Shown: positions 8,568 to 35,402 of the stretch, piece by piece | Layout of the letters: the number at the start of each line of letters is the position of its first letter | Position numbering within the stretch: position 1 is the stretch's first letter | DNA from: Gemmatimonadota bacterium | GTDB taxonomy: Bacteria; Latescibacterota; UBA2968; GCA-2709665 | NCBI GenBank assembly: GCA_028877215.1 | Contig: JAPPFJ010000024.1 | Span: 20,835 to 84,834 of the forward strand | Length of the DNA stretch: 64,000 bases | Reading direction: 5' to 3' | Program-made: the position numbers and the translations under genes | Notes under the pieces: model-generated | The model's input: the letters and a program-made list of their open reading frames with translations, nothing else | Databases searched by the model: none | What the model was told of the DNA's origin: nothing

Positions 8568-11072
8568 ATGATCCAAATATCATTGCATTCGGTTCTGATT
8601 GTAGGCATCGGATTACTGTATTGTGGCGATCCCACGGCCAAGGAGAATTCCACGGAAGCCGAAACGCGGGTCGCCAAGCTGCATCAGACGGGTTTGGAGA
8701 TGTTGGAACAGGGCCGGCTGGAAGAAGCCGCGAAACAATTACGAAGTGCTACTGAAATCAATCATAAACATGCGCCCTCGTACGTGGGATTGGGGCAAGT
8801 CTACTTGGAGCAGGATAGTCTAAAGGCCGCGGAGCAGGCCTTTTTGAAAGCCCGACATGCCAACGAAGGGTATGCGCCGGCCTATAACGGGTTGGGTCTG
8901 GTCTACTGGAAGAAGAAGACGGGACGGCTTTGGGCTATTCAGTATTTCCGAACTGCTTACCAACTTGATCGCAGGTACTCGGAGGCCTATTACAATGCTG
9001 CTGAGGTCTACCGTGAATTGGGCGATACGAAGGAACTGGATACGTATGAGAGATTGGTGGAAGCCTTTCCGGAACATCGGGATGCCTGGTTCCGAATTGG
9101 AGAAATACACCGAACGGGTGGAGCCGGACGGTATCCGAATTTAACTGAAGCCGAGGCAGCCTATCGTCAACAGCTCGCAGTGGATGTGAACCACCTGGCG
9201 GCGCGGTCCCGTTTAGCCGACGTCTTGGCGGTCCGTGGCAATATCGACGAGGCACTGGACCTGTTGGAGGGGTTTGAAGATACCTCAGGGGTGCATAGTC
9301 GCGAAGTTTTATTACAACAGGCCAGGATCCATCAAATTCGCCGTGACGCCGATAGGGCCGAGGCGCTCTATGAGGAATACATCGAATCATTGGATTGGGA
9401 GGAGCAACTGTGTTTTTTCGATCTCAGCCTCGTTCTGGATGGCGCGGAGCTGGACGGGTTCAGAGTTGCGCCGAAGTCGCAATGGAAGGAACTTTCAAAC
9501 GCGTTCTGGGCCGGGAAGGACCCCGCGCCGGTGACGGCGGCGAACGAACGCCGAAACGAACATTACCGTCGCGTTGCATTCTCCCGGGAGCTATATGGCG
9601 AACATTCTCACCCATGGGACGTCAGGGGCGAGGTCTATGTCCGGTACGGGGAACCGGATCACGTCAGCAAGTCGGACGATATTCAATTCGAGACGGCGCC
9701 CAGGGTGGTGGCGGTAAAAGAACGCCTGATCAATCAGGCAGGCGATGCGATTTTCGCGTTAACGAGGAGCAGGAATGACGAGATGCTTGAATATGTCGTG
9801 ACGGAAGCGTTCAATTACAATGACCCAAACCGGGAAATTCAAATAGGACCGATGAGTTCCAGGCAAAGAGAGATCGCGGAAACCGGCAATAGCCGCACTT
9901 ATACTGCAAAAGAAGAAGACCCGATGTCGGAAATGCGAAAGAGTGGAAGCAAACGGGACAAATTCGGAGCTCTTCAGGTTGCCTCGTCGAGCGTTCTTGG
10001 CTGGCCCGTGTACCCGGTTCCTGGCAAGGTCTGGGAATACTGGATCTACACCAAAGTTGGGCCTGGCATTGAAATCACCTTCGTACAGCCGTACCATCCC
10101 GGACCCTACACCTATGCGGATATGCCTCACGGGATTGGCGAGGGTGGCGGCAGCGTGTCTCGTTCCTGGCGGGAGATGAATCCTGCCGTTGTGGTAGAAC
10201 GGGCCGTAGCGAAATCCCCGGAGGTGTACAGGCAGGATTTCGCGACAGCCCCCCTGCATTTCTTCTATGACACGGCGCGATTCAAGAGAAACGACCGTTC
10301 CGTCGACCTGGAGGTGTACTATGGCGTTCCAACACGTGACATCACCTACGTCACGGGCAAGGACGGGCAGCATGTCGCATATTTGACGCGAGGCGTTGCG
10401 TTGTACAATGCGGACGATCAGCGGATCTACAGGTCGGCGGAAGAAATGGAACTCTATGGGAGCGGGAGCCCCGACACATCGCGGAACGCTTTCTTACCGT
10501 TTATGGACCGGATCTCGGCGACGCCGGGCAACTACCGGATGGCGATCCAGATTCTGGACACTTCATCCGGAAGATCGCAGGTCTACAATCAGCGGGTAAA
10601 ACTGACGGCCTTCGGCGGTGGTTACTTGCGTCTGAGTGACATACAGCTGTCGGCCTTCATCCGATCGGCGAGCGATGGCAGGTTCGTGAAGGGTGATATC
10701 GACGTTACGCCCAATCCCAGTCAGTCTTATCTGGCGGCACAACCGGTCTACATCTACTATGAGATTTACAATCTGAAGAAGGATGATTTCGGGGTGGTGC
10801 GTTATCGGGTCACCTATCAGGTTGAATCGATCGATCGTCAGCCCATCGCTGTCCGTATTCTGGGTGGACTGGGCAAGCTGCTCGGCGGACGGGAAGAGCG
10901 CGAAACGATCACGGTGAATTACGAACACGTCGGCCACCGGTCGGACGACCACGGTTATCTGGAGCTGGATATGACCAACAGCGAACAAGGCAGTTACATG
11001 CTAAGGGTCAAGGTCACGGACATAAAATCGGGCCAGAGTACGGTCGCATCCAAGGTGTTTACAATCAAGTAG
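8568..11072 (+). CDS. Secreted TPR-repeat protein with GWxTD-type domain (G4, subfamily A)
   Basis: The track ORF starts with GTG at 8559. The ATG at 8568 has AGGTGA 5 nt upstream. The protein is colinear with G1 and G2 (FWAGKDPAPVTAANERRNEHYRRVAFSRELY...PWDVRGEVYVRYGEPDH). Confidence 0.85.
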   Translation: MIQISLHSVLIVGIGLLYCGDPTAKENSTEAETRVAKLHQTGLEMLEQGRLEEAAKQLRSATEINHKHAPSYVGLGQVYLEQDSLKAAEQAFLKARHANEGYAPAYNGLGLVYWKKKTGRLWAIQYFRTAYQLDRRYSEAYYNAAEVYRELGDTKELDTYERLVEAFPEHRDAWFRIGEIHRTGGAGRYPNLTEAEAAYRQQLAVDVNHLAARSRLADVLAVRGNIDEALDLLEGFEDTSGVHSREVLLQQARIHQIRRDADRAEALYEEYIESLDWEEQLCFFDLSLVLDGAELDGFRVAPKSQWKELSNAFWAGKDPAPVTAANERRNEHYRRVAFSRELYGEHSHPWDVRGEVYVRYGEPDHVSKSDDIQFETAPRVVAVKERLINQAGDAIFALTRSRNDEMLEYVVTEAFNYNDPNREIQIGPMSSRQREIAETGNSRTYTAKEEDPMSEMRKSGSKRDKFGALQVASSSVLGWPVYPVPGKVWEYWIYTKVGPGIEITFVQPYHPGPYTYADMPHGIGEGGGSVSRSWREMNPAVVVERAVAKSPEVYRQDFATAPLHFFYDTARFKRNDRSVDLEVYYGVPTRDITYVTGKDGQHVAYLTRGVALYNADDQRIYRSAEEMELYGSGSPDTSRNAFLPFMDRISATPGNYRMAIQILDTSSGRSQVYNQRVKLTAFGGGYLRLSDIQLSAFIRSASDGRFVKGDIDVTPNPSQSYLAAQPVYIYYEIYNLKKDDFGVVRYRVTYQVESIDRQPIAVRILGGLGKLLGGREERETITVNYEHVGHRSDDHGYLELDMTNSEQGSYMLRVKVTDIKSGQSTVASKVFTIK

Positions 11073-11120
11073 CGGAATGGTCGCCTCCATAAGATGACGG
11101 TGTCTTGGATCTACACCACT

Positions 11121-11160
11121 CCCCCTGTTAACCAGGATACTTTGCAACAAGGGGTTTTTC
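11121..11160 (+). terminator. Possible intrinsic terminator after G4
   Basis: CCCCTGTT, a 16-nt loop, then AACAAGGGG gives 8 bp with one bulge. TTTTTC follows, about 50 nt after the G4 stop. Confidence 0.35.
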
Positions 11161-11337
11161 ATTATTGTGGCGAGATTGGGTTCGGGGAGTTTCGCCCTCC
11201 GGGCTCCATTCGATTTCGGTTTTTGTTGAACCCATGACACACGGTCGGTGTCTTTTACAAATGGTTGACAGGGCTGAAAATCGCATGAAACGGCCTGGTC
11301 GGTCCAAAGACGTATACGGCCAGGATTTCCGGTAGGC

Positions 11338-11362
11338 AGGGCACCCACAAGGGACGCCCCTA
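11338..11362. repeat. REP-like hairpin element, family GGGCGCCCACAAGGGACGCCCCTAC (copy 1, variant GGGCACCC)
   Basis: The same 25-26 nt sequence recurs at 24025, 24104 (inverted) and 27518. It self-folds as a GGGCGCCC / GGG(A)CGCCC stem with an ACAA loop. Confidence 0.8.
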
Positions 11363-11391
11363 CGAACCGGAGGTTGGACTATTAAGCTTGC

Positions 11392-11518
11392 CTAGGAGCC
11401 TGTCGGAATACCTATGCCAACATTTTATGGCATACAGTATATGGTGCAATTTAGAACATTAAAATCTATATATTGTATGTCGACTCGCCAAAATTGGGGT
11501 TCTCCGACAGACTCCTAG
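11392..11518. promoter_or_regulatory. AT-rich structured region upstream of Kelch gene K1, bounded by a 16-17 bp inverted repeat
   Basis: CTAGGAGCCTGTCGGAA at 11392-11408 pairs with TTCTCCGACAGACTCCTAG at 11500-11518 (one mismatch). They enclose about 90 bp of strongly AT-rich DNA that has its own TATGCCA/TGGCATA hairpin. Confidence 0.4.
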
Positions 11519-11621
11519 TTAATCAGTTAATGATATTCGAAAGAGACCGTGAGTCACCAGACTGCAGATTGTTATTGAATCCGCGATCATATTTTCAAAT
11601 GTGGAAGTGAAAGGGCGAGTA

Positions 11622-12701
11622 ATGACTGCAAGACTTCCTGCTGTGATCGCGATTATCTCAGGTCTCGCAGCATGCGGATCGAGTGCGCCAACACCGTCGG
11701 AACCACCGGCCGACCTGAAGGGGTTTGAATATGCCGGTAATCTGATTCAGAAGCGGTTCTGGCATACGGCGACTTTAATGAACGATGGCCGCGTTCTCGT
11801 TTCGGGCGGAGCGGCGACGGATCGCCCGGGTCATTCGTCTGCAGCGCTGTATCACGACAGCACGGAGCTGTTCGATCCTGAGACCGGTACCTCGTCGTCG
11901 ACGCGCAACATGTCGAGGGGCAGAGTTGGCGACAAGGGTATATTGCTGGCGGACGGTCGGGTGGTGATTCTGGGAGCGCACCTCGCTCCGGTGGAGATAT
12001 ACGATCCCCAATCAGATAGATTCTCCGCACACAACGCAACATTGGGAGATATCGGTACCGCGACGTTGCTACCGAATGGGAAGATACTTGCATATTGCCG
12101 ATCTGACATCGCTCTTTTCGACCCGGATACAGGGAATTTTGTGCGTCTTCCAGGGTCGTTTGGCAGTCGCGGAGGCCATACGGCGACCTTACTTCAGAAT
12201 GGGCGTATCCTCATTGTTGGCGGCGGCTACCGTGGAGGTTTGGGAAAAGTCGCGGAAATCTACGAACCGACGTCCAACACATTTACGAGCGTTGGGGAAT
12301 TATACAATGAACGTCGTGGACACAAAGCCGTCCTTCTCAATGACGGCAGGGTATTGGTTATTGGCGGCACTAAAGGCGATTTCACCTCTCCTGAGCCTGT
12401 AATGGAGGCCGAACTATACGACCCGGTTACCGGTACGTTCTCGCTGGTGGGCTCTCCTGGTATCATGCCGATATGGGCCGCCGCCGCCCTACACACAGGT
12501 AAAGTGTTTCTTATCTGCGGCGAAGATGGAAACGTCGTTATCTACGATCCCGCCTCCGGGTCGTTCATTCTCACGGGAGACAGCATTGGACCCAATCGAA
12601 AGTTCTATTCGACAACCGTCCTTAACGACGGTCGCGTTCTGGTCGCCGGAGGAATGAAAGACGGAGAAGCTACGGATCACGTTCTGGTTTACAAACCCTG
12701 A
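11622..12701 (+). CDS. Kelch-repeat beta-propeller lipoprotein (K1)
   Basis: The ATG at 11622 gives MTARLPAVIAIISGLAACGSS, with a canonical lipobox L-A-A-C. There are seven repeats of the H(T/K)A(T/V)LL.DGRVL(I/V).GG type, typical of Kelch/galactose-oxidase-like blades. Confidence 0.85.
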   Translation: MTARLPAVIAIISGLAACGSSAPTPSEPPADLKGFEYAGNLIQKRFWHTATLMNDGRVLVSGGAATDRPGHSSAALYHDSTELFDPETGTSSSTRNMSRGRVGDKGILLADGRVVILGAHLAPVEIYDPQSDRFSAHNATLGDIGTATLLPNGKILAYCRSDIALFDPDTGNFVRLPGSFGSRGGHTATLLQNGRILIVGGGYRGGLGKVAEIYEPTSNTFTSVGELYNERRGHKAVLLNDGRVLVIGGTKGDFTSPEPVMEAELYDPVTGTFSLVGSPGIMPIWAAAALHTGKVFLICGEDGNVVIYDPASGSFILTGDSIGPNRKFYSTTVLNDGRVLVAGGMKDGEATDHVLVYKP

Positions 12702-12713
12702 ACTGACGACACA

Positions 12714-12912
12714 GTTAGCCTCAATGCGAAAAAAACAGCAACGCGGCAACGCGATAAAACCCTCCGAAACGGGGCAATATCGACGTATAGAATGACGTTT
12801 TTTCCCTTCACGTCCAGTGACCTGGTGTATCCTGGTAATCCGCCGTTTAATCGCCTTTATTTACAAGCACATATTCGAATTAACGTCCCCAAAGACTTAC
12901 GAATCAAGGTTA
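12714..12912 (-). mobile_element. 199-bp MITE-like repeat, copy A (inverted relative to copy B)
   Basis: By hand alignment the reverse complement matches 18652..18850 at 196 of 199 positions. The three mismatches all lie near the outer end. It begins 13 nt after the K1 stop. Confidence 0.85.
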
Positions 12913-13147
12913 GTTATACACTCCCTAACGTGGTCGAAGTTCACTAAAGTCAGCTTCCATTGTCGCGATAGAAAATTCTCTGATGTAATTCGGAGTCGGA
13001 GTAGGAACACAACAAGACAGCGTATGATTACCTGGTTTCTGTCATTGGGCTAATCCGGCGGGCAGCACAGGCAGTGACTGCGCTTCGGTAAGCCAATTGC
13101 GATACCCCTGAGAATCACACGGCGGACGATTGCCATCCCCAAAGCGC

Positions 13148-13176
13148 TTGCACTGCCGGTTGAAACTGCATAACAT
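13148..13176 (+). promoter_or_regulatory. Sigma70-like promoter candidate upstream of G5
   Basis: TTGCAC, 17 nt, then TAACAT, about 78 nt upstream of the ATG at 13254. It is not known whether this lineage uses the consensus. Confidence 0.25.
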
Positions 13177-13253
13177 GCTGGATCGGAACGGGGTACGATG
13201 ACGAAGGTTTACGATAGCAGACACGACGTTTCGGTCCAGCAGAGGTCGATTGC

Positions 13254-16200
13254 ATGAAATCACGAGGCGGCTCTACGCGTGTGAAACGGCGGGTTCTGGT
13301 TCTCATTTCGGCCCTGGCGATTTCCGCCCTCTGTCCACTTGAGAATCTCGATGCGCAGGTTCGTCAGACCGCGGTATCGGCCTCCAGCGGTGGCGATACC
13401 GCGTGGGCGATCGGGCTGGAAACCGGTTCTTCCGCCATTACCGAAATCTGGGTCGAAACCCCGGGAAACCAGCCTCGCCATCTCGGCACCTTTCCCGGCC
13501 CGCCCGGGCGCCTCGAGTGGGTTGCTGGCGGGAAACGCCTTCGCTATCGCGAAACACCCTTACGGGTCCCCCTGCATACGCTTACCATGCTCCCGGAACG
13601 GTCCGTACCGCTGGTACCACCTGGTGTATGGGAGATCTCCATCCGGGACGGGTCGATTGCGCGATCGAAAAGTGCTGTCGGCGCGGAGGCTGGAACGCAG
13701 TCGGTTGCGGAGGCCGTAAACGCGCCGCAACCGAGTCGCGCCGCAAAGGCGGTGCTGTGGGGGGTCGCGGCGGTATTCAACGCCTCGGCCCTGGCCTATA
13801 CGACCGTGCACCGCTGGGAATTTCGATCGGCGGTGAAGCGTTACCGGCAAGCCTCCCGGTCGTGGGCGTCCCTGTATCTCAGATTCAAAAAGCATGGGCT
13901 CTACGAAGAGCCGGTCCTGTCCTACGCGGGGGCCCTGGCCGCAACCGCGAAGAAGGCCGGCGCAAAGCGCGGCGCCCGCTGGGTCTGCCAGGACCATCTG
14001 ACCGTAATCGGAGATGCCCTTCACGCCTATGAGCAGGCACACGAAAACCAGCGGCCTTCCGATCTGGCGGCGCTCAGGAACTGGATGGAAACCCATACGC
14101 TGACGCCGGCGGACTCTATCGTCATGAAGACGCTGTTTCGCTCGGCGATGGACTCCGATAAGAAGCGCCGGTTCAGCTACACACACGGATACCGTCCTGA
14201 AGCGGAGGACGGCGAAGCCGTTGTCACCAGCTTCTTCCACGACGGTTACCTGGTTGAAGCCGTCCGCAGCGGCGCGGGATATCGTACCGTCGACCGGCGC
14301 GTGGGCAAGGCGCAGGTCGATTCCCTCCTCAACCTCGGCACGGACCTCACCCCGATCGACCCGCCCAGGGCGATCTCCACCCTGGAAATCCTTGCCGGCG
14401 TGGCTCAGGACTACGCCCTCGGGCACAGCAGGCTCGGGTTTGCCTATCTGGAGGCCGAGAAGCTGGAACGCGCCATTAAGTCCTTCGAGCGCGCGATCGA
14501 ATGCGAACACACGCTGGCCGAGGCCTACTTCGGTCTGGGTCTCACCTTCCGCAAGTGGCCCAGGGGAAATTACGACGCCATACGCTATTTCCAGAAAGCC
14601 CTTCAGTACGACCGGGGCCACGTGGAGTCCCGGTTCAATATTGCCGATATCCGATATAAACTGGACGAACACGACGTACGGCGGGAAGTCAAGAAAGTAC
14701 TGGCAATTGATCCCCGCTACGCCCCCGCCTATCTGCTGATGGGAAAATGGGTGGAGGAATTCGAGAAGGACTACGAAAGAGCCGCGTTCTACTACGCGAA
14801 ATATATGGGCTTGCGACCCGGTGACCCGGAGGGGCGGAAGCGGCTGGGGTCGATTTATCTGAGAACGAAGGACTACGGCCGTATCCTGGAAGTCCTGGAG
14901 GATTACGCCGTACAGAACCCGGACGACAACCAGGTCCTGCCCATCCTCGCGCAGGCGTGCATGAAACTGGGGGCCTACGACAGGGCCGCCGCCTTTTTCA
15001 GAGACTATCTTGAAAGGGCCGATGCGGCCGAGAAGGGGCACTACCACGATATCCGGCTGGTTGCGCCGAAGGAGACGCTTGCGGCCTTCGAAAAGACGCC
15101 GCTGGAAGAACGATGGGACTTTGTGAAGAAATTCTGGGCGGACCAGGACCCTGACCTGACCACGGCGGCGAACGAGCGCCTCCTGGAGCACTATCGGCGG
15201 GTGTCGTTCGCCATGCAAAATTTCTCCGATGGCAGGCAGCCGTGGGACCAGCGCGGCGAAGTCTACATTCGTTTCGGCGAACCCGACCACCGCTCCACCT
15301 ACAAAGAGTTGAACTTCCAGCAGTCCATGGCGGTTCAGCGGGTCAAGGAACGTCTTTCCAGGACGCTCTACGGGGCTGCGCGCCCTCCTCGCCGCGGAAT
15401 CGGCCTTCGCGGCGCCAGCTCAACGTTCGTCGGTCCGGTCTACCCCGTGCGCAGCCTGGGCGGCAGGGGTCCCGGGGGGTCCTACAGACCGGTCACCGCG
15501 ACGTACGACGGCTCGATGGTCCCGTGGGAAACGTGGACGTACGTCGATGTGGGCAGCGGGATCGAGATTACCTTTACAGACGAGTTCAGCAACGGAAACT
15601 ACAACTACGCGCCCGAACCGCTGGATGCCCGGATTCCTGCCCGCCGGCTGGCCATGTTCACCCGCTACAGCCCCCGCAATATCTACCGCATGGCCGCGGC
15701 GGCACAGCCGAACTACTTCGTGAGGCCGAAAAACACGCTGCCGATGGAATTCTATTTCAATTCGGCCGATTTCAGGAGTGAAACGGATTTCCGGACGGCG
15801 CTGGAAGTCTACGTTGGGATACCGCGGCACCAGGGGCACTATATTGTCGATGACGACCGGACGGAAATTATGGTGGACAGGACCGTGGCGCTGCGGAATC
15901 CGACAACCGGCGCCGTCTACCGGAGCGAGGACAAGGTGCATTTCGCGGCGAAAGGGGACGTGACCGCGGAACGGACCGCGTTTGTGCCGGACCTCGCGCG
16001 CATGGACGTGCCCCCCGGGCGCTACCGGATGGAAGTGAAAATTAAGGATAACCTGTCCGTGCAGCACGGTCGGTATCGTCAGGACGTGGAGATCGAGTCC
16101 TATGAACAGGACAGCCTCCAGGTGAGCGACCTGGAACTGGCCTGGCGGATTTCCAGCCGCAAAGACGATGATAAATTCAACAAAGGCGCGCTTTGGGTCA

Positions 16201-16559
16201 TTCCAATGCCAACTCGGACCTACCGGGTGGGCCAGAATGTATTCGTCTACTACGAAATCTATAACCTGACAAGAGACGAATTCGGGCAGACGAACTACCA
16301 GATATCCTACACCGTCACGAAGAAGGGCGGCTTCAACCCCCTGGGTATCATTAAAAGCCTTATCAGGTGGAAGAAGGGCAAACGTGAAGAACTGGAAGTG
16401 ACGTACGAGATGCTGGGTGAGGATACCATGGAGGTCGAATACGTGGAACTCAAGCTGGAAAACCGCCCCGCGGGCAAGTACTTCCTGAACGTGACCGTCA
16501 TCGATATGAAAAGTGGTGAAATGGCCCAGAAAAAGGCCAGCTTTATTCTCGCGAAGTAG
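13254..16559 (+). CDS. Large secreted protein: N-terminal extension, TPR repeats and GWxTD-type domain (G5, subfamily C)
   Basis: 1101-aa ORF with signal-like MKSRGGSTRVKRRVLVLISALAISALCPL. TPR-like repeats are present. It contains FWADQDPDLTTAANERLLEHYRRVSFAMQNF...QPWDQRGEVYIRFGEPDH and the C-terminal VFVYYEIYNL region, as in the other paralogs. Confidence 0.85.
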   Translation: MKSRGGSTRVKRRVLVLISALAISALCPLENLDAQVRQTAVSASSGGDTAWAIGLETGSSAITEIWVETPGNQPRHLGTFPGPPGRLEWVAGGKRLRYRETPLRVPLHTLTMLPERSVPLVPPGVWEISIRDGSIARSKSAVGAEAGTQSVAEAVNAPQPSRAAKAVLWGVAAVFNASALAYTTVHRWEFRSAVKRYRQASRSWASLYLRFKKHGLYEEPVLSYAGALAATAKKAGAKRGARWVCQDHLTVIGDALHAYEQAHENQRPSDLAALRNWMETHTLTPADSIVMKTLFRSAMDSDKKRRFSYTHGYRPEAEDGEAVVTSFFHDGYLVEAVRSGAGYRTVDRRVGKAQVDSLLNLGTDLTPIDPPRAISTLEILAGVAQDYALGHSRLGFAYLEAEKLERAIKSFERAIECEHTLAEAYFGLGLTFRKWPRGNYDAIRYFQKALQYDRGHVESRFNIADIRYKLDEHDVRREVKKVLAIDPRYAPAYLLMGKWVEEFEKDYERAAFYYAKYMGLRPGDPEGRKRLGSIYLRTKDYGRILEVLEDYAVQNPDDNQVLPILAQACMKLGAYDRAAAFFRDYLERADAAEKGHYHDIRLVAPKETLAAFEKTPLEERWDFVKKFWADQDPDLTTAANERLLEHYRRVSFAMQNFSDGRQPWDQRGEVYIRFGEPDHRSTYKELNFQQSMAVQRVKERLSRTLYGAARPPRRGIGLRGASSTFVGPVYPVRSLGGRGPGGSYRPVTATYDGSMVPWETWTYVDVGSGIEITFTDEFSNGNYNYAPEPLDARIPARRLAMFTRYSPRNIYRMAAAAQPNYFVRPKNTLPMEFYFNSADFRSETDFRTALEVYVGIPRHQGHYIVDDDRTEIMVDRTVALRNPTTGAVYRSEDKVHFAAKGDVTAERTAFVPDLARMDVPPGRYRMEVKIKDNLSVQHGRYRQDVEIESYEQDSLQVSDLELAWRISSRKDDDKFNKGALWVIPMPTRTYRVGQNVFVYYEIYNLTRDEFGQTNYQISYTVTKKGGFNPLGIIKSLIRWKKGKREELEVTYEMLGEDTMEVEYVELKLENRPAGKYFLNVTVIDMKSGEMAQKKASFILAK

Positions 16560-16702
16560 AATTTTCCCCACCCAATTTTAGCTCGGCTGCCCGCCAAGAG
16601 ACAGATGATCCCGCAGCAACAGATGGGCCCGATCCGGTTCACGTCTGCCGCGAATACCCGCAACCACCCGACCATCCAATATCCTTTTACAGACGAGGAG
16701 AC

Positions 16703-25732: not shown

Positions 25733-25826
25733 CGCGGAGACCGGATGATCTGCGATGGCATGTCTGCCACGTCTGGATCGCATTTAAGATCGAAACCGCA
25801 TACGTCCAGGGCCTTTTCGGAAAGTC

Positions 25827-27492: not shown

Positions 27493-27517
27493 ACGGTACC
27501 CCAAGCCGCGAAAGGCC

Positions 27518-27543
27518 GGGCGCCCACAAGGGACGCCCCTGCA
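27518..27543. repeat. REP-like hairpin element (GGGCGCCCACAAGGGACGCCCCTGC)
   Basis: Same family as 11338 and 24025/24104. Confidence 0.8.
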
Positions 27544-27667
27544 AGAATTGGGGTAGTGAAGGGGAGGTTAAGGCGCTGCTCGTTTGCATGACGATTGGTG
27601 GGCCGTGTTCCTGGACAATGCTGAATCCATGCATTCTAAACAACGTCTCCGCAAGGTAGTCTAAGAG

Positions 27668-28762
27668 ATGACATCCAGAATCTTAACAGCGTTGTTTCTG
27701 ATCTCGAGCTTCTGGGCCTGTGGCGGCGATTCGGTCACGACGCCGGAGCAGCCAGCTCTTGAACGGGGTCTCCACGAGGTCGGTGTCATGACCCAGCCTC
27801 GGCTTCAACATTTCGCGACGTTAATGCAGAATGGCAAGGTCCTGATCGGGGGCGGATACGAGGAACCGCTCTCAACCCGTCGCATCAGCGCCGAAATATT
27901 CGATCCGTTGACCGGGTCCTCTTCGCCAACGGGCAATATGACCGTCAGTCGATCCACGGACAAGGGTATCCTGCTTGCCGACGGTCGCATCCTGATTATG
28001 CCCAGGTATCATGATTTTCCCGTTGAGATCTACGATCCTCATTCCGCTCGATTCGAAGCCCTGGCGAAAATTCCCTGGTATCCGCCCATTACCACTGCAA
28101 ATCTGCTTCAAAGCGGCAGGATATTCGTGACGACCCAGCAGCATGCGGCGGTCTTCGACCCTGCTGCGGGCGCCTTTACCTCCTTAGTCGCGATGGAGGA
28201 AACACGAAAAAACCATACGTCGACGTTGCTAAAGGACGGCCACGTGTTGATCGTCGGCGGGAGCACGGGGAATAACGAGTTGACCGGGCGGAATCTGATC
28301 TACCATCCCTCGTCAAATGGTTTTACGGAAGCCGGTCGTCTGCAGGTTGACCGCTGGGGCCATACGGCCTTGCTTCTCCATGACGGCAGAGTTCTGATCC
28401 TGGGCGGCCATACCGGTTCGGAACAGGCAATCCTTGCCGAGATGTACGACACCGAAACGGACACGTTCTCGCCGGTCGGAGTGGCCGCGATTTCGCCGCT
28501 GGCTGCCCTGCTGCTGCCGTCCGGCAGAGTGTTGCTCATCCACGTGCCCAACGGCAATATCGTACTTTACAATCCGGATACGCATGAATTATCTCCTACA
28601 GTGTACAGCATAGGACCGTGGCGAAGCGGTGCGACGGTTACGCTCCTTGAAGACAACCGGGTAATGATTGCCGGCGGCTGGAAATACAGGGACAGCTCGA
28701 CGCAAAGTGGGCAGGGTCAAGAGCGGGAGATGTCGGATCAGATTCTAATATTTGCCCCATAG
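27668..28762 (+). CDS. Kelch-repeat beta-propeller lipoprotein (K3), first of six tandem copies
   Basis: The N-terminus MTSRILTALFLISSFWACGGDSVTTPEQPALERGLHEVG is conserved among K3-K8, and seven Kelch-like blades are present. The Cys follows F-W-A, an atypical but plausible lipobox. Confidence 0.85.
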   Translation: MTSRILTALFLISSFWACGGDSVTTPEQPALERGLHEVGVMTQPRLQHFATLMQNGKVLIGGGYEEPLSTRRISAEIFDPLTGSSSPTGNMTVSRSTDKGILLADGRILIMPRYHDFPVEIYDPHSARFEALAKIPWYPPITTANLLQSGRIFVTTQQHAAVFDPAAGAFTSLVAMEETRKNHTSTLLKDGHVLIVGGSTGNNELTGRNLIYHPSSNGFTEAGRLQVDRWGHTALLLHDGRVLILGGHTGSEQAILAEMYDTETDTFSPVGVAAISPLAALLLPSGRVLLIHVPNGNIVLYNPDTHELSPTVYSIGPWRSGATVTLLEDNRVMIAGGWKYRDSSTQSGQGQEREMSDQILIFAP

Positions 28763-28792: not shown

Positions 28793-28841
28793 GGAAGCCG
28801 GTTTGAGGGTGGGGCGGACATTCCTGTCTGCCCGCTTCGCC
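28793..28841 (+). repeat. Post-Kelch hairpin repeat, copy 1
   Basis: GGAAGCCGGTTTGAGGGTGGGGCGGACATTCCTGTCTGCCCG contains the stem GGGCGGACA / TGTCTGCCC (9 bp including one G-T pair) with a TTCC loop. It recurs after K4, K5, K6 and K8. Confidence 0.85.
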
Positions 28842-28893: not shown

Positions 28894-30015
28894 ATGACAG
28901 CCCGAATCGCAATAGCATTGTTGGGGATCTCAAGCTTCTGGGCTTGCGGGAGCGACTCGGTGACGGCACCGGAGCCGCCGGCCCATGAAAGGGGTCTCCA
29001 CGAGGTTGGCGCGATGACCCGGCCGCGCTTTGAGCACGCAGCGACGTTATTACAAAGTGGAAAGGTCCTGATCGCCGGGGGCAACGCGGAAATGCCTCCT
29101 TCTGAACCTGGAGTACCTTTCAGGCCCAGCGGTCTTGTCAGCGCGGAGGTTTTCGATCCTGAAACCGGGGTCTCAACACCAACGGGAGACCTGACCGCAA
29201 GTCGATGGGACGACCACGGCATATTGCTTCCCGAAGGACGGGTCCTGATGATATCCAGATTTCTTAGACTCCCCATTGAGATGTACGACCCCCACTCCGG
29301 TAGATTCGATTCCGCAGCAAACGCGCCGTGGTCAAATGGAACGAGTACTGCCACCCTGTTGCCCAACGGAGAGGTCCTTTTAATCGGAGGGTCATCCGCG
29401 GGTCGCGCACGTGTCCTCGATCCCGCTTCAGGTACACTTTCCGACACATTCGCGATGGACCATCCCGGATATGGCCATACGGCCACTTTGCTGAAGGACG
29501 GCCGCGTGCTGATCGTTGGAGGAGCCCGCAGGGGAGTCGAGTTGACGGGACGGAATCTGATCTACGATCCCTCATCCGAAGCCTTTTCAAGAGCAGGCGA
29601 CCTGCAGTTCGACCGCGCACACCACAAGGCGGTGCTCCTTCAGGACGGCAGGGTGCTGATCGTCGGCGGCCACGTCGGAGACGGGCCTCGCGTACAGACG
29701 GCCGAGATCTACGATCCCGAAACAGACACCTTCTCGCCCGCCGGAACTTCCGCAATGCATCCGTTGGCCGCCCTGCTGCTGCCGTCCGGCAGGGTATTTT
29801 TCATTCATTCAGACAACGGTAATATCTCCCTTTATAATCCGGATACTCAAGTATTTTCGCCGCCTACAGGGTATAGTCTAGGTCCGTGGCGAAACGGGGC
29901 GACGGTAACGCTCCTCGATGACGGCCGCGTGCTTATCGCCGGCGGATTGAAGACGGCGGATGACAGTCATTCTCATGAGTCGATTTCGGATAAGATTTTC
30001 ATCTTCACGCCCTGA
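28894..30015 (+). CDS. Kelch-repeat beta-propeller lipoprotein (K4)
   Basis: MTARIAIALLGISSFWACGSDSV..., with the GGAGGAAGAAG RBS region. Colinear paralog of K3-K8. Confidence 0.85.
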   Translation: MTARIAIALLGISSFWACGSDSVTAPEPPAHERGLHEVGAMTRPRFEHAATLLQSGKVLIAGGNAEMPPSEPGVPFRPSGLVSAEVFDPETGVSTPTGDLTASRWDDHGILLPEGRVLMISRFLRLPIEMYDPHSGRFDSAANAPWSNGTSTATLLPNGEVLLIGGSSAGRARVLDPASGTLSDTFAMDHPGYGHTATLLKDGRVLIVGGARRGVELTGRNLIYDPSSEAFSRAGDLQFDRAHHKAVLLQDGRVLIVGGHVGDGPRVQTAEIYDPETDTFSPAGTSAMHPLAALLLPSGRVFFIHSDNGNISLYNPDTQVFSPPTGYSLGPWRNGATVTLLDDGRVLIAGGLKTADDSHSHESISDKIFIFTP

Positions 30016-30567
30016 GAGTTGCCGTTGACCGAACTGTCATGCTGAGGAAGCCGCCACGCAGGCGATGGGTCCGCGCACAGGTTCGTCTACAAAGGCCATA
30101 CGCTACATGTATAATCGAGGAGACGGGAGATTCTTCGACTCCGCTCAGAATGGCATGTTCTGTAATAACCATCAGCGACATGTGTCGGTGATACGTCGGC
30201 GTAAACCGTCATGCAGACGAAGCCGGTTTGAGGGTGGGGCGGACATTCCTGTCTGCCCGCCTCGCTCAGAACGATATGTTTTGCGATAACCATTGGCGAA
30301 GTGTCGAAAGGCTGTTGAATGGCGGGCATTTCGACATTTCGACACGCTCAATGCAGGCATGCTCAATGACCACGCGTTATTTAGTTCATCGGATGTCACT
30401 AGGCCGCTGAGAGGAGACCCAAAACCTGCCCAGCGCCGCTATCTGAGCCTGTCGAAGGTGCTGCCCTGAGCCTGCGGTCCCTGAGCTTGTCGAAGGGTCG
30501 TAGGGGCAGGCGACGGCTGATGCGGTGGGGGGATGTCAGTTCACTCGCAGTCGTGGAGGCAAACATT
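30016..30567. repeat. Repeat-rich spacer between K4 and K5, composed of several REP-like modules
   Basis: It contains three module types. One is the GCTCAGAA(T/C)G..ATGTT.TG..ATAACCAT module, present twice. The second is hairpin repeat copy 2 at 30218-30262. The third comprises GGCGGGCATTTCGACATTTCGACACGCTCAATGCAGGCATGCTCAATGACCACGC and CTGAGCCTGTCGAAGG / CCCTGAGCTTGTCGAAGGGTCG. Most modules recur at 35403-35760. Confidence 0.75.
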
Positions 30568-31704
30568 GTGAATGCCAGATTCTATTTTGCACTGTTAATC
30601 GTCTCGAGCTTCTGGGCTTGCGGAGGCGATTCGGTTACGACGCCGGAGCAGCCTGCCCTTGAACGGGGTCTCCACGAGGTCGGCAATCTGAGCCAGCCCC
30701 GGTATTGGCATGCCGCGACTTTGTTGCAGAACGGCAAGGTCCTGATCGCGGGCGGCCTCGAAGAACTGCCTGTCGTACTCGCGGGGCCGCCTCCCCCGGA
30801 TACCCCCATTCCCCAGCCGAAGCGTCTCATCAGCGCGGAAATATTCGACCCTGAGACCGGGATCTCAACGCCAACGGGAAACATGGCCGCAAGTCGCAGC
30901 GGGGACCACGGAATATTGCTTCCCGACGGCCGGGTCCTGATCATACCCGGAAATCCCAATCTCCCCATTGAGAGGTACGATGCTCATTCCGGCAGATTCA
31001 ACCCTGTGGCAGTTTTGCCTGGGAGAGTTGGGATTCTGACTGCCACTTTGCTTCTCGACGGAAAGGTCTTCTTGACCAGCACGTTATACGCGGGTGTCTT
31101 CGACCCGACTACAGGCCCATTCTCCCCCTTATTCAGGATGGATCCTTCCCGAATCGGCCATACGGCCACTTTGTTGAAGGACGGCAGGGTGTTGATCGTT
31201 GGAGGACAGAATGTCGGAGTGGACGCAGGGTTGCTGGGACGGAATCTTATCTATGATCCCTCGACCGAAGCCCTTTCGGAAGCAGGCAACTTGCAGTTCG
31301 ACCGCAGGAATCATAAGGCGGTGCTACTGGAGGACGGGAGGGTCCTGATCATAGGCGGCGGCGCCGCCGGCAGAGGGCCATTCGTGCAGACGGCAGAGAT
31401 CTACGACCCGGAAGCCAATACCTTTTCACCGGCCGGCGTCTCAACGATCGATCCCAGCGCCGCCCTTCTGCTGCCGTCCGGCAACGTGTTTCTTATCCGC
31501 TCGTACAACGGCGATATCGTACTGTATGATCCCGCCACGCACGCATTTTCCGGTACCGGATACAGCATCAGCCCGCGCAGGTCCTTTGCGACGGCCACGC
31601 TTCTTGAAGACGGCCGCGTGATGGTCGCCGGCGGAATCAAGTGGACGGCTGACAATCACGATTGGGAGTCGATTACGGATCAGATTTCCATTTTTACCCC
31701 GTGA
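30568..31704 (+). CDS. Kelch-repeat beta-propeller lipoprotein (K5)
   Basis: The track ORF starts at 30487, inside repeat DNA. Alignment with the paralog N-termini supports the GTG at 30568, after GTGGAGG, giving (M)NARFYFALLIVSSFWACGGDSV. Confidence 0.8.
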   Translation: MNARFYFALLIVSSFWACGGDSVTTPEQPALERGLHEVGNLSQPRYWHAATLLQNGKVLIAGGLEELPVVLAGPPPPDTPIPQPKRLISAEIFDPETGISTPTGNMAASRSGDHGILLPDGRVLIIPGNPNLPIERYDAHSGRFNPVAVLPGRVGILTATLLLDGKVFLTSTLYAGVFDPTTGPFSPLFRMDPSRIGHTATLLKDGRVLIVGGQNVGVDAGLLGRNLIYDPSTEALSEAGNLQFDRRNHKAVLLEDGRVLIIGGGAAGRGPFVQTAEIYDPEANTFSPAGVSTIDPSAALLLPSGNVFLIRSYNGDIVLYDPATHAFSGTGYSISPRRSFATATLLEDGRVMVAGGIKWTADNHDWESITDQISIFTP

Positions 31705-31730: not shown

Positions 31731-31775
31731 AGGAAGAAGCCGGTTTGAGGGTGGGGCGGACATTCCTGTCTGCCG
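31731..31775 (+). repeat. Post-Kelch hairpin repeat, copy 3
   Basis: AGGAAGAAGCCGGTTTGAGGGTGGGGCGGACATTCCTGTCTGCC. Confidence 0.85.
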
Positions 31776-31835: not shown

Positions 31836-32951
31836 ATGACCACCAGAATCTTGTTTGCGCTGTTAATCCTCTCAAGCCTCTGGGCTTGCGGAGGCGATTC
31901 GGTAACGACGCCGGAACAGCCGACTTATGAAAGGGGTCTCCACGAGGTCGGCACGATGACCCGGCCGCGCTATATGCACGCGGCAACGCAATTGCAAAGT
32001 GGAAAGGTCCTGATTGCCGGGGGCAACGCGGCACTACCTCCTGCGGGAGAAGGTGTGTGGGAGATCGATGGTCTTGTCAGCGCGGAGATTTTCGATCCTG
32101 AAACCGGGATCTCAACGCCAACGGGAGACCTGACCGCCAGTCGCGAAGAGGACCACGGAATATTACTGCTTCCCGACGGTCGGGTCCTGATCACAACCGG
32201 GTTTGGTAGTCTCTCTATTGAGATTTACGATCCTCAATCCGGCAGATTCGACGACGTGGCAATCTTGCCCTGGAGAGTCAGGACTCAGACTGCGACCCTG
32301 CTGCCCAGCGGAGAGGTCTTTTTGACCAGCTACTTTCAAGCGGGTGTCTTCGATCCCAGTAAAGGTGCGTTTTCCGCCACATTCCGGATGTATCCTACCC
32401 GTGTTGGCCATACGGCGACTCTGTTGAAGGATGGCAGGGTGTTGATCGTTGGAGGAAAACTCTTCGGAGGGGAATGGTTGCTGGGACAGAATCTTATCTA
32501 TGATCCCTCGACCGAAGCCTTTTCGGAAGCAGGTAACCTGCAGTTCGACCGCGTACACCATAAAGCGGTGCTCCTTCAGGACGGCAGGGTACTGATCGCA
32601 GGCGGCTCCACCGATCCTGGGGCTCCCGTTCTGACGGCCGAGATTTACGACCCGGAAACCGATACTTTCTCAGCCGCTGGAACTTCTGCAATGAATCCAA
32701 GGGCCGCCCTTCTATTGCCGTCCGGCAAGGTATTCTTTATTCACTCAGACAACGGCAATATCTCCATATATAACCCGGATACCCGAGTATTTTCGCCGCC
32801 TACAGGGTACAGTATAGGTCCGTGGCGATACGGGGCGACGGTAACGCCTCTCGAAGACGGCCGCGTCGTTATCGCCGGCGGATTGAAGTGGTCGGATGAC
32901 AGTCATTTTTGGGAGTCGATTACGGATGAAATTCTCATTTTCACGCCCTGA
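31836..32951 (+). CDS. Kelch-repeat beta-propeller lipoprotein (K6)
   Basis: MTTRILFALLILSSLWACGGDSV...; colinear paralog. Confidence 0.85.
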   Translation: MTTRILFALLILSSLWACGGDSVTTPEQPTYERGLHEVGTMTRPRYMHAATQLQSGKVLIAGGNAALPPAGEGVWEIDGLVSAEIFDPETGISTPTGDLTASREEDHGILLLPDGRVLITTGFGSLSIEIYDPQSGRFDDVAILPWRVRTQTATLLPSGEVFLTSYFQAGVFDPSKGAFSATFRMYPTRVGHTATLLKDGRVLIVGGKLFGGEWLLGQNLIYDPSTEAFSEAGNLQFDRVHHKAVLLQDGRVLIAGGSTDPGAPVLTAEIYDPETDTFSAAGTSAMNPRAALLLPSGKVFFIHSDNGNISIYNPDTRVFSPPTGYSIGPWRYGATVTPLEDGRVVIAGGLKWSDDSHFWESITDEILIFTP

Positions 32952-32980
32952 GAGTAACCGTGCACCCGATCTGTCATGCC

Positions 32981-33031
32981 AAGGAAGCCCGGTATGAAGG
33001 TGGGGTAGACATTCCTGTCTGCCCGCTTCGC
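32981..33031 (+). repeat. Post-Kelch hairpin repeat, copy 4 (diverged)
   Basis: AAGGAAGCCCGGTATGAAGGTGGGGTAGACATTCCTGTCTGCCCGCTTCGCC. Confidence 0.8.
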
Positions 33032-33085: not shown

Positions 33086-34222
33086 ATGACTGCACGAATC
33101 TTGTTTGCCCTGTTTATCGTCTCAAGCTTCTGGGCCTGCGGAAGCGATTCGGTCACCACGTCGGCGCCGCCGGCCCTTGAAAGGGGTCTTCACGAGGTTG
33201 GCAATCTGAGCAAGCCCCGGTATTGGCATGCCGCGACATTATTGCAGGATGGGAAGGTCCTGATCGCCGGCGGCTACGCGGAATTGCTTCCCGTGCTCGA
33301 TGCGCCACCTCCCCCGAATACCGCCATTCCCCGGCCGGAGCGTCATGTCAGCGCAGAGTTGTTCGATCCTGTGACCGGGACCACTACCCCTACGGGAGAC
33401 ATGACCGTGAGTCGCAGCGGGGACCACGGAATAATGCTTGCCGACGGTCGAGTCATAATCATCCCCGGATCTGCGCGTCTTCCCATCGAGATGTACGATC
33501 CTGAGTCGGGCAGATTCGACTTTGTGGCAAACGTGCCTGGGGATGTGGGGATCCGGACTGCCACGCTACTGCCCAACGGAGAGGTCTTTTTGACCAGCAC
33601 GGTACACGCGGGTGTCTTTGACCCGGATACAGGTACATTTCCCGCCGTTTTCGCTATGGATCAGCCGCGATTCGGTCATACGGCGACTTTATTGAAGGAC
33701 GGCCGCGTGCTGATCGTTGGGGGGAAGACAGTGGGAAGGGACGCCGGGCTGGTCGGCAGAAACCTGATTTACGATCCCTCGTCCGAAGCTTTTTCAGAAG
33801 CAGGCGATCTGCAAATCGACCGACTGAATCACAAAGCAGTGCTTCTTCAGGACGGCGGAGTCCTGATCATTGGCGGTAGCGATGCCGATTTTCGGAAGTC
33901 CGTACAGACCTTGGAGATGTACGACCCTGAAACCAACACGTTTTCGCCAGTCGGCGTTTCGACAATTGAACCGCTGGCCGCGTGGTTGCTGCCTTCCGGC
34001 AGAGTGATGTTCATACGCTCGATTAACGGCGATATCGCACTATACAATCCCGCGACACATGAATTCTCTCCCACGGGACACAGCATAGGGTGGCGGTCGT
34101 CGCCTACGGTAACGCTGCTTGCAGACGGCCGCGTGATGATTGCCGGTGGTTCGAAGGATACCGGCAGTGGACACACGTTCAAGGAGGAGATTACGGATCA
34201 GATTCTGATCTTCACGCCTTAG
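33086..34222 (+). CDS. Kelch-repeat beta-propeller lipoprotein (K7)
   Basis: MTARILFALFIVSSFWACGSDSV...; GAGGAGGAG RBS; colinear paralog. Confidence 0.85.
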   Translation: MTARILFALFIVSSFWACGSDSVTTSAPPALERGLHEVGNLSKPRYWHAATLLQDGKVLIAGGYAELLPVLDAPPPPNTAIPRPERHVSAELFDPVTGTTTPTGDMTVSRSGDHGIMLADGRVIIIPGSARLPIEMYDPESGRFDFVANVPGDVGIRTATLLPNGEVFLTSTVHAGVFDPDTGTFPAVFAMDQPRFGHTATLLKDGRVLIVGGKTVGRDAGLVGRNLIYDPSSEAFSEAGDLQIDRLNHKAVLLQDGGVLIIGGSDADFRKSVQTLEMYDPETNTFSPVGVSTIEPLAAWLLPSGRVMFIRSINGDIALYNPATHEFSPTGHSIGWRSSPTVTLLADGRVMIAGGSKDTGSGHTFKEEITDQILIFTP

Positions 34223-34265
34223 AGACGCGCTTAGAGACATTAGGTCTAAACCCGGGGGAAAGAAT

Positions 34266-35402
34266 ATGACCACCAGAATCCTGTTCGCGTTGTTCGTCGT
34301 CACGAGCGTATGGGCCTGTGGCGGCGATTCGGTGACCACGTCGGCGCCGCCGACCCTTGAACGGGGTCTCCACGAGGTTGGCAATCTGAGCAAGCCCCGG
34401 TATTGGCACGCCGCGACGTTATTGCCGAACGGCAAGGTTCTGATCGCCGGCGGCCTGGCGGAGCCGCCAACAGAGGTCCAGGACCCGTCTCCGGGCGGTA
34501 CTGTCATCTGGCGGCCCTCGGGTTCTCTCGCCAGCGCGGAGGTGTTCGATCCTGAAACGGGTATCTCTACGCCAACCGGAGATATGACCGCCAGACGATA
34601 CAACGACAATGGATTCTTGCTTCCCGACGGTCGCGTCCTGATCATGCCCGGAAATGGAATTCTCCCCATAGAGATGTACGATCCTCATTCCGGCAGATTC
34701 GACGCCGTGGCAGGGATGCCGTCCAATGTAAACATCACGACTGCAACACTGCTACCCAGCGGAGAGGTCTTTGTGACCAGTTGGGACCACACGGGTGTTT
34801 TCGATCCGGATACCCGCGCGTTTCACTCCATCTTTAAGAGGGAGGAAACTCGAAGACTCCATACAGCGACGCTGTTGAAGGATGGACGCGTTCTGGTCGT
34901 TGGAGGAGTGCGTCGCGGATTTGAAGACGGTTTGGTTGGACGGAACGTCATTTACGATCCCTCGTCCAGGGGCGTATCCGAAGCCGGTAATCTGCAGTTC
35001 GACCGCACAAACCATAAGGCGGTGCTTCTCCAGGACGGCAAGGTCCTGATCGTTGGGGGGCACACCGAAACAGGGACTTTCTTGCAGACGGCCGAGACAT
35101 ATGACCCTGAAACGAACACGTTTTCGCCGGCCGGCGTTTCTACCATCGACCCGAGCGCCGCCGTGCTGTTGCCGTCCGGCGACGTGCTCCTCATCCGATC
35201 GTATAACGGCGATATCGCGCTATATAATCCCGACACGCATGTATTTTCACCTACAGGACACAGCATTGGATGGCGGTCGTTGCCTACGGTTACGCTGCTC
35301 GCGGACGGACGCATTATGATTGCCGGCGGATCGAAGGATGCCGACAATGGGCATTCGGTCAAGGAGGAAATTTCGGATCAGATCCTGATCTTCACGCCCT
35401 GA
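34266..35402 (+). CDS. Kelch-repeat beta-propeller lipoprotein (K8)
   Basis: MTTRILFALFVVTSVWACGGDSV...; only 43 nt after K7; colinear paralog. Confidence 0.85.
   Translation: MTTRILFALFVVTSVWACGGDSVTTSAPPTLERGLHEVGNLSKPRYWHAATLLPNGKVLIAGGLAEPPTEVQDPSPGGTVIWRPSGSLASAEVFDPETGISTPTGDMTARRYNDNGFLLPDGRVLIMPGNGILPIEMYDPHSGRFDAVAGMPSNVNITTATLLPSGEVFVTSWDHTGVFDPDTRAFHSIFKREETRRLHTATLLKDGRVLVVGGVRRGFEDGLVGRNVIYDPSSRGVSEAGNLQFDRTNHKAVLLQDGKVLIVGGHTETGTFLQTAETYDPETNTFSPAGVSTIDPSAAVLLPSGDVLLIRSYNGDIALYNPDTHVFSPTGHSIGWRSLPTVTLLADGRIMIAGGSKDADNGHSVKEEISDQILIFTP

Follow-up and report, generated by a model that had tools for sequence, protein, structure and literature searches.

Here, we describe a 64,000-nucleotide stretch of DNA, referred to below as the window, from a genome labelled Gemmatimonadota bacterium and classified in the Genome Taxonomy Database (GTDB) under Latescibacterota; UBA2968; GCA-2709665 (assembly GCA_028877215.1, contig JAPPFJ010000024.1, positions 20,835 to 84,834 of the forward strand), and focus on two families of exported repeat proteins encoded in its first 35.4 kb. 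Members of the first family, termed G, combine tetratricopeptide repeats (TPRs) with a GWxTD domain, and members of the second, termed K, are Kelch-repeat lipoproteins. Seven G and eight K genes are found on the plus strand inside 35.4 kb, as noted in a preliminary description of this DNA, and all large, well-supported genes between position 1 and 35.4 kb have the same orientation. The coordinates also bear out that a Kelch gene twice lies directly downstream of a GWxTD gene, K1 after G4 and K2 after G6, and that the main Kelch array starts 3.7 kb past K2, the measured distance between K2 and K3 being 3,701 nt.

The G genes begin at the very edge of the window with G0 (3-260, plus strand, as are all G and K genes), the truncated C-terminal end of a G3-like TPR-GWxTD protein, which measures 809 aa on the contig; its frame-3 translation is 76% identical to the C-terminus of G3, and the full gene is seen in locus L163. 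Next come G1 (744-3260; 838 aa in the public gene call), an exported protein with TPRs, a GWxTD domain and tandem beta-sandwiches, and its paralogues G2 (3371-5881; 836 aa), G3 (6122-8503; 793 aa in the gene call), which belongs to the deep G3 clade, and G4 (8568-11072; 834 aa). G4 is separated by a 549-nt spacer from K1 (11622-12701), which encodes a seven-bladed Kelch lipoprotein of 359 aa. Two long G paralogues follow, namely G5 (13281-16559; 1092 aa), with an extra N-terminal domain, and G6 (18865-22638; about 1245-1257 aa), with a PD40-like N-terminal region (22.2 bits) and directly upstream of the Kelch lipoprotein gene K2 (22896-23966). The open reading frame (ORF) of K2 extends from 22833 and its likely start is 22884 or 22896, so that the G6-K2 spacer measures 194-257 nt depending on the choice of start codon. 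The tandem array of Kelch lipoprotein genes is made up of K3 (27668-28762), K4 (28894-30015), K5 (30568-31704), K6 (31836-32951), K7 (33086-34222) and K8 (34266-35402). The contig upstream of the window, examined via ENA record ERZ23495471 (scaffold_372, 112 kb), carries a split G1-like gene, a G gene of 811 aa and the full G0, and the G array is therefore bigger than it appeared in the preliminary description. The G1-like gene at the start of the array (L163:3-1669) is broken in two, with the TPRs in one piece and a C-terminal portion of 323 aa in the other, and represents a frameshifted pseudogene or else an error of assembly.

Sequence and modelling data predict that G proteins are exported by the Sec pathway and are composed of a TPR solenoid, a GWxTD domain and two C-terminal beta-sandwiches resembling immunoglobulin (Ig) or fibronectin type III (FnIII) domains. 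They carry signal peptides and match TPR families in Pfam. The NCBIfam GWxTD model TIGR04514, run on five of the six complete G proteins (the sixth, G2, is 52% identical to G1), scores 48.9-60.5 bits against a cut-off of 28 (G1 59, G3 53.5, G4 50.5, G5 60.5 and G6 48.9), whereas the corresponding Pfam model PF20094 reaches 19-24 bits, just under its cut-off of 26.9. The GWxTD family (TIGR04514/PF20094) has no assigned function, and a literature search for ‘GWxTD’ returned no paper. The core motifs of the family are kept in G, with an invariant W..DP...NE..EH..RV in a helix-rich core and a conserved ...W.xRG.VY.RYG.PD motif, but the G subfamily differs from it in the added N-terminal TPR solenoid and two C-terminal beta-sandwich domains, and in having P-W-D-x-R-G (PWDxRG) in all aligned members at the position of the name-giving motif instead of a literal GWxTD. 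In the AlphaFold2 model of G4, a TPR solenoid (residues 30-320) is followed by a helical to mixed GWxTD region, including a low-confidence insert, and the final 270 residues form two beta-sandwich domains with pLDDT values of 85-97. Foldseek searches with the full G4 model are dominated by TPR proteins, and those with the GWxTD and C-terminal part of the model return tandem Ig/FnIII-like domains (the C-terminal domains of factor XIII and TG2, Vibrio RbmA and Bap) at low TM-scores. PDB sequence matches of G are confined to the TPR part, and neither the PDB sequence search nor Foldseek detected a solved relative of the GWxTD core. Weak matches to TPR_Slam (PF24575) occur in G3 and are listed for many homologues. 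The long forms carry an additional N-terminal region, which is PD40-like in G6. Identities among the G copies of the window are 24-52%, with the clades {G1, G2, G4}, {G5, G6} and {G0, G3}. The GWxTD family is a large one: public data contain 4,298 clusters (at 50% identity) that match the C-terminal module of G.

K proteins are, as judged from their sequences, predicted to be lipid-anchored seven-bladed Kelch propellers. K1, K2 and K3 match Kelch_6, Kelch_1 and Kelch_4 above the Pfam cut-offs, and seven blades of the ...LL.DGRVL..GG type can be recognized in the family alignment. With about 360-380 residues, of which about 340 make up the bare propeller, they have no extra C-terminal domain of the kind that supplies copper ligands in copper oxidases. 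Each of the eight K proteins starts with a signal peptide that closes with a lipobox-like ...A/G-C|G sequence, and the lipobox Cys, followed by G-[SG], is near-invariant in the alignment. K1 (GLAAC|G, lipobox LAAC) and K2 (SLMGC|G, lipobox LMGC) have canonical lipoboxes; that of K3-K8 reads [FLV]WAC, in which the Trp at position -2 is atypical. Kelch propellers include sugar-acting enzymes, for example NanM and galactose oxidase. An enzymatic role of K as a NanM-like protein or copper oxidase was rejected on the basis of model scores far below the cut-offs; for the radical copper oxidase model NF052501 (galactose oxidase/GlxA) these were 39-62 bits against a cut-off of 800, and PDB sequence matches are to generic Kelch propellers only. 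Identity amounts to 53% between K1 and K2, to 56-71% within K3-K8 and to about 40-45% between the two groups.

To place these genes in a wider context, one genome per GTDB species was scanned for G, which yielded 76 loci, mostly from Candidatus Latescibacterota records and many of them on closed chromosomes of 5-6 Mb; G4 homologues in public records are labelled Latescibacteria or Gemmatimonadota. In 13 of these 76 loci a K gene lies within 10 kb of G, always on the same strand. Members of the K subfamily turned up in about 17 additional genomes or contigs, 56 distinct K genes were counted, and all seven K-anchored look-ups on long contigs (L078, L079, L160, L162, L164, L165 and L166) fall in G neighbourhoods, with gene orders that include G-K-G-K-G in L162, G-K-x-G-K-G...G-G-K in L164 and a single G-K pair with unrelated genes on both sides in L165. 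ORF and hidden Markov model maps reveal two recurring units, one in which K stands between a G3-type G of about 810-860 aa and a G5-type G of about 1100-1150 aa, and a second in which K follows a G6-type G of about 1245-1294 aa; both G-K junctions of the window have counterparts in at least eight other genomes. A metagenome scan with the K alignment retrieved mostly generic Kelch proteins (33-42% identity) from soil and other sources. Among 75 generic Kelch loci from other organisms none has a GWxTD neighbour, and at the five Latescibacterota-type metagenome loci G is present wherever the flank suffices, including L080-L082. A G neighbour is found at 10 of 11 K-subfamily loci, every informative one among them, and 0 of 75 generic Kelch loci (Fisher p = 3e-12, with counts that are phylogenetically non-independent). 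The preliminary description had made its idea of a joint module depend in part on co-occurrence of the two families in other genomes, and the K subfamily and its G neighbours do recur together elsewhere.

The upstream neighbour of K is directly a G gene in 29 of the 56 cases and another K gene of a tandem array in 16; five further K genes are the first of an array led by the regulator-like gene X3 (described below), one stands behind a transposase and five are at contig edges and uninformative. All 56 share the strand of their G neighbours. With refined start codons on ORF-based gene calls, the G-to-K gap is 12-14 nt in five cases (12, 13, 13, 13 and 14 nt) and 38-46 nt in four listed ones, with one junction listed twice among them (L160/L161); taken together with the 38/46-nt gaps, such short spacers are found in five or more genomes. 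The gap in L164 is 21 nt and the remaining ones are 160-770 nt. Gaps of 12-46 nt, some with overlapping ORFs, fit co-transcription. K genes of this subfamily are confined to G arrays, where they are internal or come last on the 3' side, and to tandem K arrays attached to such a cluster, and the association of G and K is a real, conserved and previously undescribed genetic linkage. It is one-way, in that K implies G, and is neither symmetric nor exclusive.

In a neighbour-joining tree the K proteins fall into five orthogroups, each with a typical G context. KA, without a member in the window, is found after G6b; KB, which includes K1, has a variable context; KC, which includes K2, follows G6; KD, again without a window member, lies between a G3-type gene and G5; and KE, to which K3-K8 belong, is a single gene between G5c and G5b in some genomes and an X3-led tandem array in the lineage of the window. 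In relatives, the G tree and locus maps place a KD-type gene directly 3' of the G3 orthogroup and a K gene always in front of G5. The sister clades G6 and G6b, each followed by a related K (KC and KA, respectively), fit duplication of a G-K unit; strict mirror-tree agreement between K and the G in front of it is limited to these pairs and was rejected as a general model. Orthologues of K2 (72-87% identity) are likewise located behind G6 orthologues. K1 orthologues (71-77%), on the other hand, stand behind four G orthogroups, namely G4 in the window, G5b in OZ250150, G5c in L164 and a G6-like gene in L165, and one slot can hold different K types, so G4-K1 and G6-K2 cannot be regarded as the fixed cognate pairs that the preliminary description took them for. 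Its term ‘co-amplification’ is misleading as well: with identities of 24-52% (G) and 39-71% (K) the copies are old paralogues, most of which have orthologues in other genomes. The KE array is the sole expansion with variable copy number (four in OZ250150, six in the window and L167, at least two in L081, a single gene in some genomes), and it grew without G genes.

Comparison with close relatives shows how individual slots change. Relative to OZ242358 (L005), with flanks of about 92% nucleotide identity, the 4.6-kb segment containing G4 and K1 is replaced by a 1.4-kb segment with a KD-type K, and G2 is a mosaic, about 92% identical over the first 1.2 kb and about 65% in its C-terminal half (window 4573-5722), which indicates gene conversion or recombination among G paralogues. 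G1 orthologues are 89-96% identical in L005, L007 and L008. In OZ250150 the cluster is found at two sites about 800 kb apart, each with G and K, and the site with G6-K2-X2-X3-KE is syntenic to the window as far as RecJ; K proteins of the two genomes are 72-81% identical, as against 85-89% for flanking housekeeping proteins. G-K adjacency has outlasted rearrangement, the splitting of the cluster over two sites and shrinkage to one G-K pair, and the linkage held while K genes moved among different G neighbours. Two relatives, RHO2_bin_5 and RHO3_bin_7, are metagenome-assembled genomes (MAGs) from the sponge Rhopaloeides odorabile with the classification Latescibacterota; UBA2968; UBA2968; GCA-2709665 (PMC8163846, supplementary file 9). 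Their clusters resemble that of the window, with G1, G3, G5 and the accessory gene X1 70-93% identical; judging by its label only, the window's own sample may also be of sponge origin.

K is not the only type of gene found among G genes. The G arrays of K-bearing genomes also contain genes for FGE-sulfatase proteins, MacB/FtsX-like permeases and a 536-aa lipoprotein, and in OZ241917 five FGE-sulfatase genes are located directly behind the G4 orthologue, where the window has K1. Two proteins of our representative library, P0354 and P0355, consist of TPRs, the GWxTD/Ig module and a C-terminal FGE-sulfatase domain, with an additional PEGA domain in P0354. FGE-sulfatase is the only domain of an interleaved family found fused to the G module, and this fusion ties the module to the FGE-sulfatase partner family. 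Tandem arrays of two to five FGE-sulfatase genes between G genes are present at L002:12967-18762, L073:6080-8505 and L160:2753-6106, and inspection by eye suggests dockerin-like N-terminal repeats in these tandem genes. In distant Latescibacterota (L064-L066, L071 and L072), pairs of G genes bracket a conserved trio made up of a SusC-like TonB-dependent receptor (1047 aa), a 722-aa protein and a 360-aa outer-membrane-protein-like gene product, with no Kelch genes.

Several additional genes lie between the G and K genes of the window. X1 (17150-18667, plus strand) encodes a type I phosphodiesterase/nucleotide pyrophosphatase-like protein (PF01663, E = 5.9e-8) with no obvious signal peptide; nucleotide comparison shows that it is largely or wholly missing at the corresponding position in L008 and L050, and it is for this reason probably an accessory passenger. 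X2 (24164-25732, plus strand), an exported 522-aa protein without a Pfam or NCBIfam match, is kept downstream of K2-type genes in L006, L081, L166 and L167. Between X2 and X3 Pfam matches point to a toxin-antitoxin-like pair on the minus strand (25827-26509), composed of overlapping genes for a Gp49/HigB-like toxin (25827-26144) and a helix-turn-helix (HTH) antitoxin (26141-26509); an HTH gene is retained at this position in L166 and L167. X3 (26836-27492, plus strand) is an XRE-family HTH protein (HTH_31, HTH_3) encoded directly upstream of K3, and an X3-type gene also directly precedes the KE array in L006, L081, L166 and L167. Its sequence is only 66% identical between genomes whose adjoining genes are 78-89% identical, and X3 is a candidate regulator of the Kelch array. 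No Rfam match and no tRNA were found in the window, and PADLOC reported no defence-system match for G4, G6, K1, K4, X1 and X2 and only generic HTH models for X3.

The long spacers of the window hold inserted repeats: a 20-mer resembling repetitive extragenic palindromic (REP) elements between G4 and K1, and a 200-nt repeat between K1 and G5. The latter (12714-12913, plus strand) has an inverted copy at 18651-18850 (minus strand), 98.5% identical, so that the pair flanks G5-X1, and a weaker copy at 38475-38656. OZ242358 has this repeat only after X1; as the copy at 12714 falls within the G4 and K1 segment, in which the two genomes differ, it may be the trace of a recombination or an insertion. 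The 20-mer CCCACAAGGGACGCCCCTAC is found at 11344-11363, 24030-24049, 24105-24124 (minus strand) and 27523-27542 (four copies against zero expected), upstream of K1, X2 and K3; the two copies after K2 are inverted relative to each other, with a distance of 75 nt. The motif was considered as a shared or K-specific operator and rejected as such, since similar copies at unrelated sites in relatives, often in inverted pairs, make it look like a genome-wide REP-like element. Within the Kelch array, a conserved element of about 50 nt recurs in the spacers (28794-28840, 31733-31774, 32973-33031 and 35424-35482), and the 552-nt K4-K5 spacer (30016-30567) has several pieces in common with the 3' flank of K8, a likeness which suggests that the array expanded when a block containing its own end was duplicated.

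Taken together, we favour, with a probability of roughly 0.55, a model in which the region belongs to an envelope gene supercluster that is conserved within one clade of Candidatus Latescibacterota and in which G and K are functionally linked. In this model, G and K would be co-expressed and act in one extracytoplasmic process. K would most likely be a membrane-anchored propeller working with G as a peripheral scaffold, the TPR part of G may mediate protein contacts and its Ig-like domains may face outward. Diversity would stem from duplication of paralogues, from gene conversion between G copies and from an exchange of K at fixed slots in the manner of cassettes, and G may serve as a scaffold of general use, with FGE-sulfatase-domain proteins among its other partners. 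Of the two-family envelope module put forward in the preliminary description, the linkage, found to be conserved, and the extracytoplasmic location suggested by both sets of sequences thus stand, and co-amplification and fixed cognate pairs do not; a two-component envelope function remains a plausible reading of the sequences. Recognition of a ligand or host surface is a plausible, and the most likely, role because of the sponge-symbiont setting and the variability of the slots. The more specific proposal that G and K form an undescribed, lineage-specific surface recognition system, with a lipid-anchored Kelch propeller on or paired with a TPR-GWxTD-Ig scaffold, in which cassette exchange of the propeller between strains and the variable copy number of the X3-controlled array would jointly tune binding to host cells or matrix or the evasion of phagocytosis or phages, we consider unlikely as it stands.

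A number of observations weigh against a functional link. At 45 of the 76 G-anchored loci there is a single G without K in an ordinary metabolic neighbourhood, where the adjoining genes (glycerate kinase-like, LysR, aldo-keto reductase, SLBB/Tcp10_C protein, MacB-like permease) give no functional clue, and a conserved three-gene G array (G1116-G777-G8xx) is also without K. Conversely, the six-gene K array has no G interleaved, and in the window G and K stand at some distance from each other (spacers of 549 and about 200-250 nt). A set of 147 representative G-module proteins contained no fusion of G with Kelch. Scans of positions 8000-27900 for consensus promoters and terminators gave counts no higher than in shuffled sequence and are uninformative. 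The K and G trees are neighbour-joining trees without support values, and the coupling is known here from gene neighbourhood. The genomes with the linkage seem to form one moderately deep clade, with housekeeping proteins about 85-89% identical in the one comparable relative; inherited synteny could therefore account for much of the pattern, and counts are phylogenetically non-independent. Recombination between G paralogues within arrays would in addition hold K beside G without selection.

These points lead to the main alternative, namely that there is no functional coupling at all and that the cluster is a nursery for paralogues of exported repeat proteins, joined by common descent and by unequal or homologous recombination between G copies. 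We regard this as somewhat unlikely, although the pattern is shared by related genomes (flanking proteins 85-89% and nucleotides up to 92% identical), many G genes have no K neighbour, K3-K8 grew without G, and the G arrays also house unrelated families (FGE-sulfatase, MacB-like, phosphodiesterase, the 536-aa lipoprotein, a transposase and the toxin-antitoxin pair), with repeats and REP-like elements in the spacers and a mosaic G2 that attests to recombination inside the array. However, the order of genes outside operons usually decays at such divergence, and yet K leaves G only after insertion of an insertion sequence; an isolated single G-K pair exists, both halves of the split cluster retained G and K, the strand is conserved in all 56 K genes, and gaps of 12-46 nt, with some ORFs overlapping, suggest shared transcripts. 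A functional alternative takes its cue from Slam, a TPR protein with a DUF560 barrel that is encoded beside its surface-lipoprotein substrates in Proteobacteria. G would then be a TPR-bearing export or assembly factor delivering neighbouring lipoproteins (K, the 536-aa protein and others) to the surface. The likeness lies in an exported TPR protein whose gene adjoins, and here stands immediately 5' of, lipoprotein genes, with neighbourhood as a conserved predictor of partnership, and extends to the weak TPR_Slam matches in G3 and many homologues, the interleaving of several lipoprotein families and the interchangeability of K types at one slot. In contrast to Slam, neither the Pfam scan nor the model of G reveals a DUF560 domain or other membrane beta-barrel; the C-terminus is modelled with high confidence as two soluble beta-sandwiches and has no terminal aromatic residue. 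Clusters with as many as nine copies of G would be unusual for a translocon, no G is dedicated to the K3-K8 array, and K is a Kelch propeller and not a TbpB/fHbp-type lipoprotein. Such a Slam-like function is in our analysis highly improbable.

The third alternative is substrate capture, with G and K as the binding parts of a polysaccharide utilization-like system for host or algal, possibly sulfated, glycans, working together with FGE-sulfatase proteins, TonB-dependent receptors and ATP-binding cassette (ABC)-type permeases. FGE-sulfatase arrays and MacB-like permeases between G genes, the SusC-like receptor and outer-membrane protein of distant relatives and the presence of sugar-acting enzymes such as NanM and galactose oxidase among Kelch propellers would all fit. 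For sponge-associated Latescibacteria of the class UBA2968, an enrichment of glycoside hydrolases has been reported (PMC8163846). In the cluster of the window, though, no gene for a glycoside hydrolase, a sulfatase, SusD or a TonB-dependent receptor was seen, K scores far below the NanM and GlxA cut-offs and does not have the extra domain of the copper oxidases, and the arrangement with a receptor occurs only in distant genomes that show no K, which makes this explanation very unlikely. A further comparison is with SusC/SusD-like pairs, two-gene outer-membrane units that are amplified in the Fibrobacteres-Chlorobi-Bacteroidetes (FCB) superphylum. As in those pairs, a lipoprotein and a second envelope protein are present in many paralogous copies that diversified through duplication; unlike them, the cluster of the window has no TonB-dependent barrel or SusD fold and G and K are not in a 1:1 ratio, and a SusC-like receptor stands between G genes only in distant relatives.

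A functionally linked G-K pair would have parallels in envelope machines that unite TPR and beta-propeller components, such as BamD and BamB of the beta-barrel assembly machinery (BAM), TolB and CpoB (YbgF) of the Tol system and PorE of the type IX secretion system (T9SS). PorE, from the same superphylum, contains TPR, propeller and beta-sandwich in one lipoprotein. The resemblance consists of a TPR scaffold and a propeller, as protein or lipoprotein, in the periplasm or at the outer membrane; matches of G to these components are at the level of the TPRs and far below cut-offs (PorE E = 0.0018, BamD E = 0.004, YbgF E = 1.6e-6), and Kelch is a propeller family distinct from the PQQ, WD40 and TolB propellers of these machines. 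Partner genes for Pal, TolQRA, BamA or OmpA_C proteins are not found among the genes of the window's cluster. In sponge symbionts, eukaryote-like repeat proteins (TPR, ankyrin, LRR and WD40) are expanded, including in Latescibacterota, and TPR is reported as the predominant repeat class in sponge Latescibacterota MAGs (PMC8163846, PMC12993501). Lineage and habitat fit at least two relatives of the window, and exported repeat proteins such as G and K could contact the host; the surveys differ from the present analysis in that they are genome-wide domain counts, in which Kelch proteins and a clustered G-K arrangement are not mentioned (PMC8163846, PMC12993501).

The preliminary description knew of no system with this composition, and our literature searches similarly turned up neither a publication on this cluster nor anything of relevance on Latescibacter and Kelch. 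The arrangement is undescribed, yet its domain families are known and its logic, that of a TPR scaffold beside a lipoprotein partner, is familiar. To our knowledge, Latescibacterota have no cultured representative, and the cluster can be traced in sponge metatranscriptomes, proteomes and strain-resolved metagenomes. It also makes the ‘eukaryote-like’ TPR expansions of sponge symbionts concrete, as a defined cluster with a variable slot. Should the linkage be inherited synteny only, it would still be a useful example of how arrays of exported proteins diversify via gene conversion and cassette replacement. If the surface-recognition reading is true, G would be a general docking scaffold for domains such as Kelch and the FGE-sulfatase fold, which would provide a first functional handle on GWxTD. 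The strict association of K with G and the FGE-sulfatase fusion are the first testable leads to the function of the GWxTD domain.

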